From Promethearchaeota archaeon (GTDB taxonomy: Archaea > Asgardarchaeota > Thorarchaeia > Thorarchaeales > Thorarchaeaceae): DNA of 64,000 nt. This document shows, piece by piece, positions 41,633 through 45,299 of this stretch. The DNA is taken from assembly GCA_048939765.1 (NCBI GenBank), contig JBHLPF010000004.1:1-64000 (forward strand), in the 5' to 3' direction. Numbering within the stretch: the stretch's first letter is position 1; every line of letters begins with the position of its first letter. The notes under the pieces were generated by a model. That model did no database searches, was not told the origin of the DNA, and worked only from the letters and a program-made list of their open reading frames with translations. The position numbers were made by a program, and so were the translations under genes.

Positions 41633-42460
41633 CTAAAGGTCGCCGACCCATGATTCATAGTCGGCTTTGATTTGAGATGCTTCGTCTGAGTCGCCAAAGT
41701 CTGCTGGATCGATGTGCAGGTCGTCCCCATCTTGGACTGCTTCGATCACCATAATGCCTGGGGCCTCGATCTTGACACCCATCTTTCCATCACGCTCAAA
41801 GCGCTCTGTGTAGACTAGGTCTGCGTTTCGGACTGCTGAGTATATTAGGTATGCAGTTTTTTGCTCAGCCGCCCCTGCAGGGGGGGCAACGACTGGCTCA
41901 GGCTCGGGCTCAGGTTCCGGCTCCTCAGTGATGGTTGTAGCAGTGATAGTGGGTGTTTCGGGAACAGTTGGCGCAGGCTCAGGCTCGGGCATAGGCGCTG
42001 GCTTGGCTGGCCTTGCCTCACTTGCTATCGGGGGGCCCGGTCCAGGATCAAATGCCAAGAATTTGTCTTCAAATTGCCATCTCCTTGTGATAGCTTCTCT
42101 GAATCTTTCAATGGCTCCGGCAACCTCAGGGTCGCCAGCATCTTTCTCTAGCATCTCGACATAGTGCGTGGATGCCATTCCAATGTTGGTGATCCCTATA
42201 CTGTGTCCTGACTTCGCAACACTCTTCCCAATTCGAAGTGCGTGCATTCGTGTGGGCATGTTTACATTGCGCCCTACAAATACCCAGCATGTATCATTAA
42301 TCTCATCAAGCACTATGATGGCAGAATCGCTATTGACTAGTGATGCATCTAGCTTGACAGGCGTTACTTCACCAGAATCATCCTGAAGCATCAACATGAA
42401 TGGTTTTCTTGAAAGGGGTTTCTTCGGAATCCCGGTAACCTCCTGTAATGTTGGTCCCAA
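41633..42460 (-). CDS. Gelsolin-domain protein with Pro/Glu-rich linker and C-terminal domain
   Basis: LDASLVNSDSAIIVLDE...CWVFVG.......R..A resembles the gelsolin signature L.S.D.FILD....YVW.G...S..E...A; PEPEPEP linker. Confidence 0.72.
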   Translation of the reverse strand: MGPTLQEVTGIPKKPLSRKPFMLMLQDDSGEVTPVKLDASLVNSDSAIIVLDEINDTCWVFVGRNVNMPTRMHALRIGKSVAKSGHSIGITNIGMASTHYVEMLEKDAGDPEVAGAIERFREAITRRWQFEDKFLAFDPGPGPPIASEARPAKPAPMPEPEPAPTVPETPTITATTITEEPEPEPEPEPVVAPPAGAAEQKTAYLIYSAVRNADLVYTERFERDGKMGVKIEAPGIMVIEAVQDGDDLHIDPADFGDSDEASQIKADYESWVGDL

Positions 42461-42619: not shown

Positions 42620-42671
42620 TTTATATAGAGCTCCCATTATGGGAAACTTGCCCATTCTTCCCATTATGGGA
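42620..42671 (+). promoter_or_regulatory. TATA box followed by two identical palindromes TCCCAT-T-ATGGGA
   Basis: TTTATATA at 42620-42627; TCCCATTATGGGA at 42632-42644 and 42659-42671; half-site CCCATT at 42651. Confidence 0.7.
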
Positions 42672-42722
42672 GTCGAATGGCCGGGACCAAAACATAGCGA
42701 ACGCAATGGGTGGGTGCAAGAC

Positions 42723-42980
42723 GTGACCAGAAGCACACTAACACCCGTTCCCTGTCCAGTATGTGGAGCAGTTGTGGACGGTGTCACTGTAGATGAGGAT
42801 TCTATCAAGAATGCCGAACGAGTGCCAGTGATCGTTCCCACAAAGTGTAGCAAGGGCCATGCAGTTGTGCTGTTTGTGGACAGGACCCTTACAGTAAGAG
42901 ACGTTGAGGCCGCTGCTGAGGCAGTACAGGATGAAAAAGATGCTGTAGAAAAAGCACAGGGCTGGATGGACAACTTCTAG
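42723..42980 (+). CDS. Small Zn-ribbon protein
   Basis: CPVCG...CSKGH...LFVD. GTG at 42723 follows a G-rich SD; the longer track ORF runs through the operator DNA. Confidence 0.75.
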   Translation: MTRSTLTPVPCPVCGAVVDGVTVDEDSIKNAERVPVIVPTKCSKGHAVVLFVDRTLTVRDVEAAAEAVQDEKDAVEKAQGWMDNF

Positions 42981-42992
42981 GTGAGAGATGCA

Positions 42993-43382
42993 ATGTTACA
43001 GGGAGTCTACATAGTGAACCATGCCGGGGAGACCCAGGCTGCAATAAACATGGGAGAATTCACGGTGGATGAAGTCCTCTTCGGAGGATTCCTCTCAGCG
43101 ATTCAGATGTACACCCAACAGATGTCAGGAACTGACCTTGAGGAGCTCTCTCTGGACAAGTTTCGTATGCTAATGTCACGAACGGAGAATTCCTTCGTAG
43201 TTAGCGTTCATGACCGAGATGACGAAGATGCAGCTGATCTGAATCGAAAGGTCAAGGCCATTCTCGATAATGGCATGGACGGTATAATCACGGAGGACAC
43301 TATAGAGATGATTCGTGAAGTTGCCCGCAGGGCCGCAGGTGCTGGCGAGCGCGCAGGAGAATGGGCTTCGAAGATGTTATAG
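42993..43382 (+). CDS. Longin-like domain protein
   Basis: vyIvn..G......., D..LFGGFLSAI..Y..., then three beta strands and a helix, i.e. the longin pattern. SD AGGTGA overlaps the upstream TAG. Confidence 0.72.
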   Translation: MLQGVYIVNHAGETQAAINMGEFTVDEVLFGGFLSAIQMYTQQMSGTDLEELSLDKFRMLMSRTENSFVVSVHDRDDEDAADLNRKVKAILDNGMDGIITEDTIEMIREVARRAAGAGERAGEWASKML

Positions 43383-43393
43383 GGGTGAAAGAA

Positions 43394-44779
43394 ATGCAAC
43401 TACTCGTACAGGATGCATCAGAACTTCTGATGGCAGTGACATTGATTCTTGCAGCCATCATTCTAACTCGATATACAAGGCTTCGGACCGCCGACCTTCC
43501 TCCTGAAGAGAGAGGGGCGGGTCAGCCGCTATATCTGTCAGCGTTAGGAATCTTGACGCTGGCAGTGGCTTCGTTCTTGAACTATCAGCTTCCACTTGAT
43601 GCTGCTGCTTCAGTGTTGACTGCAACATATTATGTTACAACAATGCTAGCAGCCGCACTATTCGCTATTGCAGCTCTCATGATATTGGAGTGGAGGCGAG
43701 CTATAGTCGTTCCAGTAGTGATGCTAGTCCTCGGAACTGTCTATACATACGCGATCGTATTCATGGAAATGACTGTGAGCTTTGGCATGGTGGTAGGGCC
43801 AATATCCCTGATTCTCAACCTTGTACCGATTGGGCTATTTGCCTATTTGGCACATAAGACCAAGAGAATCACAGCAATTGCTCTACTATTCCTTATCGTT
43901 TCTTACATCATATATCCAATGGCAAGCACGTCGATTGATCCTTCAATGATTGCGGCACTACTTGGAATTCGGCTTTTGGGTCCAGCTCTGGCGATTTGGG
44001 CTTTTCTCAAGCCTGATCTCGGCGTTTCCATTGAGCTCTTTGGCTATGCTCTGTCCATCAACATAGTCGCGTTCTTTCTCTCCTATGTTGTAGCGATTGG
44101 CTTTGGAGATGCAATACTTTCAATCTCGGTGAGTCTTCTTGCCCTGTTGGCTGTTGTAGGATTTGCGACGAGTACATTCACATTTTCTAGATTCCGTGAG
44201 CGACGAAATCCTGCAACTGGTCTGTTGGCGGTCTATTTCATTGTAGGGTCTGTGAGCTACATCATCGTTGCTCTCACCTATCTCGGTGCATTGACTGGCG
44301 CCATGAATGACTACACTAGCTCAATACTTGGCCTTATGGCCATGATGTTCCTCAACCTCAGTGCCTTTGTTGCTCTTGATTGGCGACGAATACTACTGCT
44401 TCCAATTGTGATTGCCGCACCAGCCATTGTCTTCATGATGATGAACTATCCGACCCCGATTGACGACATTGCTGGTTATGGGGCTTTCTTTGGAATGACA
44501 AACATGATTCAGAACATGGTTCCACTTGGACTGTATTTCTTGCTCTGGTACAGGATGAGGAAAGCAGATGCTATGGGAAGAAGCAGGCCCCTGTTTCTTG
44601 GTCTTGGACTTATCCTCCTAGCCGTTGGTAGCGTGATTGGTATGTTCACTCAAGGTGAGTTCACATCCGTTGGACTCGTTCCAAGCTCAACGTTGCTTCT
44701 TGCATACGTTGTGTTCTGGCTGGGTGTCACTGGCCGAGCCGACCAGCTCCTAGGCACATTTCGTCCGGAGGCACTATGA
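43394..44779 (+). CDS. Polytopic membrane protein, ~15 TM, internally duplicated 7TM module
   Basis: SD GGGGTGA precedes ATG 43394. Repeats: ILEWRRAIVVP / ALDWRRILLLP and LNLVPIGLF / QNMVPLGLY. Confidence 0.8.
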   Translation: MQLLVQDASELLMAVTLILAAIILTRYTRLRTADLPPEERGAGQPLYLSALGILTLAVASFLNYQLPLDAAASVLTATYYVTTMLAAALFAIAALMILEWRRAIVVPVVMLVLGTVYTYAIVFMEMTVSFGMVVGPISLILNLVPIGLFAYLAHKTKRITAIALLFLIVSYIIYPMASTSIDPSMIAALLGIRLLGPALAIWAFLKPDLGVSIELFGYALSINIVAFFLSYVVAIGFGDAILSISVSLLALLAVVGFATSTFTFSRFRERRNPATGLLAVYFIVGSVSYIIVALTYLGALTGAMNDYTSSILGLMAMMFLNLSAFVALDWRRILLLPIVIAAPAIVFMMMNYPTPIDDIAGYGAFFGMTNMIQNMVPLGLYFLLWYRMRKADAMGRSRPLFLGLGLILLAVGSVIGMFTQGEFTSVGLVPSSTLLLAYVVFWLGVTGRADQLLGTFRPEAL

Positions 44780-44780
44780 A

Positions 44781-45299
44781 ATGGCACTTCGAAGCCCAAT
44801 CTACAAGATGGTTCTAATTGGCGAAGGCGGCGTTGGCAAGACCAGCATCACTGTTCGCTACACTGAGGACCGATTCGATGAACAAATGAAGATGACAATA
44901 GGAGTCAACTTCGCATCAAAGGAGGTTGTTCTCGACGATGGGAGTGTCCGGCTTATGCTCTGGGATCTTGGGGGTCAGCCCAGATTCAGGGATGTAGTCT
45001 CCGGATACTTCAAGGGGGCAAGAGTAGCTCTTGCTGTCTATGATGCAAACAGGTACTTCTCTCTTGAACGTCTCACTGATTGGATAAGTCGTGTGAGAGA
45101 GAATGCTCCTGACTGTCAACTCATCTTTGTTGGAAACAAAATCGATGAAAGGCAGAATGGCCAAGGCGTGCCTCTAGAAGAGGGGCGAGAGTTCGCCGTG
45201 AAATACGGAGCCGCCTGTGTAGAAGTATCTGCAAAAACAGGAGAGGGTATCTCAGAGCTGTTTGAGGTCGTCGCTCGTTCTCTAGCGAGCGAAAATTGA
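44781..45299 (+). CDS. Rab-like small GTPase
   Basis: GEGGVGKT, TIGVNF, WDLGGQ, YFKGA, NKID, EVSAK; no C-terminal Cys. Confidence 0.93.
   Translation: MALRSPIYKMVLIGEGGVGKTSITVRYTEDRFDEQMKMTIGVNFASKEVVLDDGSVRLMLWDLGGQPRFRDVVSGYFKGARVALAVYDANRYFSLERLTDWISRVRENAPDCQLIFVGNKIDERQNGQGVPLEEGREFAVKYGAACVEVSAKTGEGISELFEVVARSLASEN

Follow-up and report, generated by a model that had tools for sequence, protein, structure and literature searches.

The window analysed here is a stretch of 64,000 nucleotides (positions 1 to 64,000 of the forward strand of contig JBHLPF010000004.1, assembly GCA_048939765.1) from a Promethearchaeota archaeon of the Thorarchaeaceae, a family of the Asgard archaea. Between positions 42620 and 45299 it carries four plus-strand open reading frames (ORFs), g1 to g4, which encode in this order a small zinc-ribbon-like protein, a longin-fold protein, a membrane protein with two seven-transmembrane (7TM) units and a Rab-like small GTPase (Table 1). 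With the gene bounds given in Table 1, the intergenic gaps are 12, 11 and 1 nt, and words resembling Shine-Dalgarno sequences lie directly 5′ of g2 (AGGTGA), g3 (GGGGTGA) and g4 (CGGAGG). A TATA-like box and a pair of identical near-palindromes precede the operon. An earlier, sequence-only reading of this DNA had described the co-oriented, tightly packed genes, their spacing and a TATA box with twin palindromes, and this observation is correct. It had also interpreted the operon as a self-contained module that couples a 7TM protein to a G protein, transcribed divergently from a gelsolin-like actin regulator and therefore possibly acting on the cytoskeleton. As detailed below, the identities of the parts and their linkage stood up to analysis, whereas the gelsolin-like neighbour and the cytoskeletal output did not.

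Table 1. Positions of the four genes, their subfeatures and the related features discussed in the text (unprefixed positions refer to the window)
Feature	Position	Strand	Description or basis
g1, small zinc-ribbon-like protein	42639..42980	+	113 aa (ATG 42639), 104 aa (ATG 42666) or 94 aa (GTG 42696)
g2, longin-fold protein	42993..43382	+	129 aa; AlphaFold2 (AF2) model, VIA, Foldseek
g3, 15-helix membrane protein	43394..44779	+	461 aa; 7TM, linker transmembrane (TM) helix, 7TM; AF2 model
g3 repeat 1	43394..44008	+	residues 1-205, TM1-7; hhalign of halves, model helices
g3 linker helix TM8	44030..44098	+	residues 213-235, invariant Glu214 and Tyr218; model, invariant columns
[quoted passage not shown]
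g4, Rab-like small GTPase	44781..45299	+	172 aa; Pfam Ras, TIGR00231, PDB chains
TATA-like box TTTATATA	42620..42627	+	read directly from the sequence; 5′ of the operon; putative function
13-bp near-palindrome TCCCATTATGGGA, two exact copies	42632-42644, 42659-42671	+	27 bp apart; candidate operator pair
g0	41633..42460	-	275 aa, no family; divergent; conserved neighbour of orthologous modules only
One-mismatch palindrome copies	G000 contig C13:51037-51049 (= L032:5052-5064); L041:2401-2413		g1-g2 spacer
g2-like longin fused to Ras- or Arf-family GTPase	L045:148-1146 (G122); L044:261-1157 (G301)	-	Asgard proteins
Gelsolin-domain genes of the same genome	C46:96910-97431; C54:80086-80295; C69:17253-17465		PF00626

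Identity of the four proteins

The product of g4 is a Rab-like GTPase that lacks the usual lipid attachment site, as the sequence-only reading had held. It matched the Pfam family Ras (PF00071) at 2.9e-42 with 144 bits (cut-off 21.6) and TIGR00231 at 8e-22, and its 60 best PDB chains were all Rab, Ypt or Sec4 proteins or the crystallised Thorarchaeota Rab 7ezb (E 1e-30 to 3e-34); the closest solved relatives are Rab6, Rab11, Rab8 and 7ezb itself (1e-32 to 1e-34). The motifs G1 to G5 are intact (GEGGVGKTS, Thr39, WDLGGQ, NKID and SAK) and, with the fourth in the form NKxD, invariant or nearly so across 26 homologues, none of which carries the C-terminal Cys that forms the geranylgeranylation motif of eukaryotic Rabs.

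The product of g2 has the longin fold that had been claimed for it. Its AF2 model (predicted local distance difference test score, pLDDT, 75; predicted template-modelling score, pTM, 0.71) consists of strands (E) and helices (H) at E2-9, E14-19, H27-42, E49-54, E57-63, E67-74, H80-95 and H101-116. Their succession, strand-strand-helix-strand-strand-strand-helix-helix, is the one seen in longins, and the helix with which roadblock proteins begin at the N-terminus is absent. Longins were the best structural matches in VIA (synbindin at Z 13.9 over 114 aa and 2.5 Å, Sec22 at 12.8, VAMP7 and AP-3 sigma at 12.5 each), further matches included AP sigma and zeta-COP subunits, sedlin, TRAPPC1-type subunits, DENND1A and Mon1-Ccz1, and Foldseek found AP-2 sigma at 8e-6. 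Roadblock proteins came below the longins (Z 8-10 over about 90 residues; MglB at about 8-10). At the level of sequence, no Pfam or NCBIfam family matched g2, and a profile search of the PDB returned non-significant matches only, among them the first longin domain of MON1 at E of about 2. Of 400 Asgard genomes, 388 nevertheless contain longin domains that the g2 profile recognises, and matches stronger than 1e-30 occurred solely in the g3-carrying families f1, f4 and f14.

For g1, the ligand part of the earlier zinc-ribbon claim was borne out by a conserved CPxC...C...H (Cys3-His) pattern: C30, P31, C33 and C61 are invariant and H65 nearly so among 28 homologues, and the same holds in 26 paired rows. 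No Pfam or NCBIfam family matched g1, and Pfam gave no match to DUF742. Small zinc ribbons appeared in the PDB profile search at a non-significant E of 0.2-0.35 only, and the best named match of the Atlas model was Zn_ribbon_21 (template-modelling score, TM-score, 0.43/0.53). The core domain of g1 also occurs inside ORFs of 150-290 aa in other Asgard families, and a relative of this core (73 aa) lies on another contig of the same genome (G000:C87:54400-54621, or L047:2001-2222), where it lacks the Trp tail described next and adjoins a 276-aa ORF. Several g1 homologues of family f14 (in G094, G100, G109 and G111) show in-frame TGA or TAG codons and could be pseudogenes, products of sequencing errors or cases of recoding.

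Both small proteins end in a conserved tail with the common pattern Ala-x-x-Trp-hydrophobic. The Trp stands 5 residues from the C-terminus in all 26 g1 sequences and 6 residues from the C-terminus in 25 of the 26 g2 sequences, and the tail of g2 is disordered in the AF2 model. Judged from the sequences, the two tails are most simply read as docking peptides for a common partner, and the obvious candidate for such a partner would be g3, with its internal duplication and conserved basic inner face.

The membrane protein encoded by g3 consists, as the sequence-only reading had proposed, of two 7TM units, which are joined by an additional helix. The AF2 model (pLDDT 85, pTM 0.80) shows 15 long helices, and hhalign identified its two halves as homologues of each other (probability 90.8%, E 1.2e-6, residues 27-159 against 262-391). 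Because the linker helix TM8 lies between them, both units share the same orientation in the membrane. The loops on the predicted inner side hold 18.7 Lys plus Arg residues compared with 1.7 on the outer side, which predicts for both units an N-terminus outside and a C-terminus inside. Conservation is highest in the inner, cytoplasmic loops (0.58), followed by the transmembrane helices (0.50) and the outer loops (0.37); the outer loops have just 3-11 residues, are poorly conserved and are accompanied by no extracellular domain. No Pfam or NCBIfam family matched g3, and Pfam detected no histidine kinase (HK) or HAMP domain. A profile search of 1.84 billion representatives recovered the narrow family of g3 alone (69 representative clusters) and no receptor family. 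An Atlas search with g3 and g1 found unnamed Asgard clusters only, and a match to HisKA_7TM at 0.84 can serve as a lead only.

Conservation, linkage and fusion

The four genes form a conserved module, which agrees with the expectation of synteny across Asgard genomes. A profile search found the g3 family in 49 of 400 Asgard genomes, including 43 of 85 in the same family as the source genome, all 3 of family f4 and 2 of the 19 of family f14; the latter two families belong to Asgard classes other than Thorarchaeia and share only the phylum with the source genome. Every full-length g3 homologue with enough flanking sequence is accompanied by g1, g2 and g4 as same-strand neighbours, which amounts to 32 non-identical modules in three lineages. 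The orthologues and the distant families show the order g1-g2-g3-g4, whereas a paralogous clade has g4-g1-g2-g3, and the source genome itself contains three paralogous modules (contigs C54, C48 and C13). The genes also diverge together, most closely g2 and g3 (correlation of pairwise distances 0.89, with identical clustering), followed by g1 and g2 (0.83); as related genomes are not independent, the co-divergence of the four genes is descriptive. Two loci depart from the simple arrangement. One (L043, G334:C3:61000-71500) is an array g1-g2-g3-g4-g2-g3 on one strand, in which the extra g2-g3 pair has neither g1 nor g4; the other (L038, G319:C119:15527-27022) holds two full modules on opposite strands, with their upstream ends face to face.

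Gene fusion elsewhere in the Asgard archaea joins the same two kinds of domain. In a genome of another family (G122), a 332-aa protein combines a g2-like domain (hhalign probability 98.2%, E 3.5e-14) with a Ras-family GTPase that is 35% identical to g4 (E 4e-30), and this fusion is sequence-level evidence that this type of longin works on this type of GTPase. The GTPase of the fusion has WDFGGS in place of DxxGQ and is therefore without the catalytic Gln. More generally, the g2 profile picks up the N-terminal domains of Asgard longin-GTPase fusions, and these domains match Fuz_longin_1 (E 1.3e-4) and Clat_adaptor_s (E 0.0096), both under the cut-off. A joint structure prediction of the four chains scored 0.38, compared with 0.00 and 0.00 in controls with g3 replaced and 0.36 in a control with g4 replaced, and counts neither for nor against a complex.

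It is in principle conceivable that the four genes lie side by side but share no function. This explanation would have to account for 32 modules in two gene orders and three lineages, for three paralogous copies in one genome, for the co-divergence of the four genes, with the caveat on related genomes given above, and for the longin-GTPase fusion found elsewhere, and we regard it as highly improbable. The module is real and strongly conserved, and it is of the same kind as operons that combine a sensor, a platform and a small GTPase.

A probable membrane-docked GTPase switch and its alternatives

On balance, we lean towards the view that this single operon encodes a self-contained small-GTPase switch that docks at the membrane. 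In such a switch, g4 would be the nucleotide-dependent element, and in the absence of a lipid anchor only contacts with other proteins could bring it to the membrane. The longin g2 would bind g4 as its platform and control its nucleotide state, either as an exchange factor for guanine nucleotides (GEF) or as a GTPase-activating protein (GAP), and g1 would be a co-factor of g2. With its conserved basic cytoplasmic face, g3 would be the membrane partner, which would hold the soluble proteins in position and might also gate them. The way in which small GTPases are bound by longin and roadblock platforms is conserved (PMC10933270, PMC3747258). On this reading, the four products would bind one another, g4 would be regulated in one direction or the other, g3 may sense a signal and the switch would have an output.

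A more specific explanation is that the operon encodes a receptor-to-G-protein pathway, in which g3 senses a ligand or a property of the membrane within its 7TM bundles and passes a change of conformation on to the longin and the zinc-ribbon protein, which together act as GEF on g4. The shape of the second g3 bundle points in this direction: in VIA, residues 238-461 matched a designed GPCR-like fold at Z 17.2, ADGRL3 at 16.2, GABA-B at 15.7 and mGlu, CaSR and TAS1R at 13-15, and GPCRs made up 46 of the 50 best rows and superposed helix for helix over 200-215 residues at 3.4-4.3 Å. The predicted orientation, with the N-terminus outside and the C-terminus inside, is that of GPCRs, and the conserved cytoplasmic loops lie where GPCRs meet their partners. 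Moreover, the Rab GEFs TRAPP and Mon1-Ccz1 have longin dimers as their catalytic core (PMC3747258, PMC10152722), and the conservon, discussed below, is a prokaryotic precedent for sensor-to-small-GTPase logic (PMC13343842).

Several findings nevertheless weigh against a receptor, and some of them against the switch in general. The short and variable outer loops of g3 leave no obvious ligand-binding surface; the outer surface is nearly absent and lacks an extracellular domain, and g3 has no sequence homology to any receptor family. The GPCR-type matches cover repeat 2 only, and all-helical models reach about Z 14 without known kinship, so that the Z of 14-17 obtained with g3 is only modestly higher. 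When g3 was compared with the PDB by Foldseek, no match had an E lower than 0.1, and the match to LYCHOS (PDB 8u5n) was weak (E 0.26-0.56). In addition, 7TM folds similar to those of GPCRs occur widely in prokaryotes in the absence of G proteins (PMC13581589, PMC10760455). Depending on the system, platforms of the longin and roadblock type serve as GEFs, as GAPs or simply as scaffolds (PMC10933270, PMC3747258), so that the fold of g2 does not reveal the sign of regulation and is compatible with a GEF as well as with a GAP. The zinc-ribbon fold of g1 is likewise not established, its Atlas model being of low confidence (pLDDT 0.57), and no longin or GTPase gene is evident beside the g1-like gene on contig C87, where the neighbours were judged by their ORF translations only. 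Overall, we consider the receptor pathway a doubtful possibility.

The relation between g3 and the soluble proteins could also be the reverse, with g3 as the target, namely a transporter, a channel or a protein that handles lipids; the GTPase, the longin and the zinc-ribbon protein would then control its activity, its assembly or where it is placed. The linkage fits this explanation equally well, and the tightest pair is g2-g3, of which extra copies occur without g1 and g4 in the array described above. An architecture of fifteen transmembrane helices in parallel repeats would also suit a carrier, and a comparable case exists in the longin-like SRX domain and the SR-beta GTPase at the translocon; the SRX domains of the signal recognition particle (SRP) receptor match g2 at Z 9.8 and 9.0. 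However, when we checked whether g3 folds as a known transporter, an outcome that would have spoken against the sequence-only reading, the best transporter rows in Foldseek against the PDB (MurJ, MATE and WzxE) had TM-scores of 0.13-0.22, and we did not adopt a transporter fold. It is with GPCR 7TM domains that the helices of the second bundle align one by one, and conservation peaks on the cytoplasmic face of g3, not in the membrane core. We therefore consider a regulated target unlikely.

The closest known system to this proposed membrane-docked switch is the actinobacterial conservon (CvnA-D; Mfp operon), which consists of a histidine-kinase-like membrane sensor, an MglB-type roadblock protein, a DUF742 protein (the GEF in the Mfp system) and a small GTPase. 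As here, four genes thus encode a membrane protein, a member of the roadblock/longin superfamily, an accessory protein and a Ras-superfamily GTPase (PMC13343842, PMC13621833, PMC4316618, PMC11343762). The parts themselves differ throughout: the conservon has a CvnA-type HK-like sensor, whereas g3 is a tandem 7TM protein without a histidine-kinase domain; it has a roadblock protein, whereas g2 has longin topology; its accessory protein is DUF742 rather than the zinc-ribbon protein g1; and its GTPase is of the MglA type, whereas g4 is Rab-like with DxxGQ. As every component differs in fold or family and none is orthologous, the module is an analogue of the conservon and not a member of this group. 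Because conservons share its logic, a prokaryotic operon leading from a membrane sensor to a small GTPase has a precedent (PMC13343842, PMC4316618).

Other systems resemble the module in part. In MglA-MglB of Myxococcus and Thermus (PDB 3t12; PMC9481161), a small GTPase gene also stands beside a regulator of the roadblock/longin superfamily, but MglB is a GAP with a roadblock fold, MglA lacks the Rab-type G3 motif and the operon includes neither a membrane protein nor a zinc ribbon. The TRAPP core, Mon1-Ccz1 and DENN proteins (PMC3747258, PMC10152722) share the longin fold and a Rab-like GTPase partner. In contrast to them, g2 is a single domain of 129 aa with a Trp tail and without a family match at the sequence level, the operon encodes no TRAPPC3/Bet3 partner and the GEF role of g2 is putative.

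The comparison with class C GPCRs (GABA-B, mGlu, CaSR and TAS1R) concerns g3 alone. These receptors are obligate dimers. Their 7TM domains superpose on repeat 2 over 200-215 residues at 3.5-3.9 Å (Z 13-15.7), they have the orientation predicted for g3, and like g3 they place two 7TM units side by side. In g3, however, the units belong to one chain that is connected by an eighth helix, an extracellular domain is lacking and there is no sequence similarity to the receptors; and class C GPCRs act on a heterotrimeric G protein, whereas the partners here would be a small GTPase and a longin.

Among eukaryotic systems, polytopic membrane proteins also control small GTPases through roadblock/longin platforms in the assemblies of Ragulator-Rag, FLCN and GATOR1 with SLC38A9 and LYCHOS/GPR155 (PMC7063858). 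One of these lysosomal membrane sensors carries a GPCR-like domain. The Rag GTPases lack a lipid anchor, as g4 does, and are kept in place by contacts with other proteins, but unlike g4 they form heterodimers and have C-terminal roadblock domains. To our knowledge, no mTOR-type output exists in archaea.

Asgard genomes encode dozens of small GTPases and roadblock/longin proteins (PMC10933270; preprint 10.1101/2020.10.19.343400), whose genes are generally not arranged in common operons (PMC10933270), so that genome layout cannot match these GTPases to their regulators. Most genes for eukaryotic signature proteins (ESPs) in Asgard genomes lie outside conserved neighbourhoods, and the main text of the corresponding survey is without the present module (Liu et al., preprint 10.1101/2020.10.19.343400). 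The neighbourhoods in published work are only those of ESCRT and of an operon of a LAMTOR1-like roadblock protein, a Rab-like GTPase and a DENN protein (preprint 10.1101/2020.10.19.343400); this operon shares with the module a Rab-like GTPase beside a roadblock/longin-superfamily protein, and differs from it in that the partners here are a zinc-ribbon protein, a longin and a tandem 7TM protein. GPCR-shaped 7TM folds are common in prokaryotes (PMC13581589, PMC10760455), and Asgard 7TM proteins and structural clusters resembling class C GPCRs have been listed (preprint 10.64898/2026.10.28.762692), but none of these reports ties such a protein to a GTPase operon. We found no description of the module in the literature searched, a search that was not exhaustive.

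The module is thus an exception among Asgard GTPase genes, in that one GTPase, a longin, a zinc-ribbon co-factor and a membrane partner have stayed together through duplication and a change of gene order, and it provides a defined and testable set of GTPase, regulator and membrane protein in archaea closely related to eukaryotes. Experiments on four small recombinant proteins could address how an archaeal Rab-like GTPase without a lipid reaches the membrane, whether the longin of an archaeon is a GEF or a GAP and whether GPCR-shaped 7TM proteins talked to GTPases before eukaryotes. In its boldest form, which we consider quite unlikely, the proposal would be a pre-eukaryotic receptor-to-GTPase pathway, in which a covalent pair of GPCR-shaped 7TM units senses a membrane-borne or small hydrophobic signal and a Trp-docked exchange factor of longin and zinc-ribbon protein activates g4. 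If this were true, the coupling of 7TM proteins to GTPases through longin platforms would have been invented by the Asgard archaea before heterotrimeric G proteins and organelles existed.

The divergent neighbour and the promoter region

The divergently transcribed ORF upstream of the operon, g0, is real and is conserved beside orthologous modules, where it is kept in several genera, and it is absent beside paralogous modules. It combines conserved N- and C-terminal domains with a variable linker rich in Pro, Glu and Thr. Within Thorarchaeota, g0 is highly conserved (194 proteins; 59-100% identity among 120 listed) and ranks among the better conserved of the proteins specific to this group that were encountered here, and NCBI locus tags place g0 and g3 homologues 3-4 genes apart. 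Its membership in the four-gene system is uncertain. The sequence-only reading had called g0 gelsolin-like, and this did not hold at the sequence level: the Pfam family Gelsolin (PF00626) gave no match to g0 even at E <= 10, whereas it detected four gelsolin stretches above the cut-off elsewhere in the same genome (Table 1), and searches of g0 with Pfam, NCBIfam and PDB profiles returned nothing. The gelsolin assignment was therefore rejected at this level, and since the proposed cytoskeletal output had rested on this neighbour, that output is so far without support. A local pattern in the g0 sequence recalls a gelsolin repeat.

The start of g1 (window positions 42639-42720) is ambiguous among the three codons in Table 1. 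The most upstream ATG lies only about 12 nt downstream of the TATA-like box. The GTG aligns exactly with the Met start of orthologues in other genera and has GGTGGGTG just upstream, and the nearest Thorarchaeota cluster to g1 in the Atlas contains proteins of 95 aa. In other genera, the corresponding DNA (GAGGTGACC) is not coding but serves as ribosome-binding site.

The TATA-like box TTTATATA is likewise found in the same-genus locus L002. The two TCCCATTATGGGA palindromes overlap the longest g1 reading frame; they are the only exact copies in the whole 3.37-Mb assembly, and the pair is retained solely in the same-genus orthologous loci L002 and L004. They may be operators. A wider regulon under the same motif was considered and rejected, as copies with one mismatch occur genome-wide at about the frequency expected by chance. 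Two such one-mismatch palindromes are TCCCGTTATGGGA and TCCCATTAAGGGA, which are located between g1 and g2 in a paralogous module of the source genome and of a same-genus genome and may or may not reflect shared regulation. In another genus (L005 and L007-L011), the region between g0 and g1 is without CCCATTATGGG palindromes; there, repeated palindromes of the type TTGCGA...TCGCAA flank a TATATATAGG box 5′ of the g1 orthologues, which suggests that a different operator may serve the same operon.

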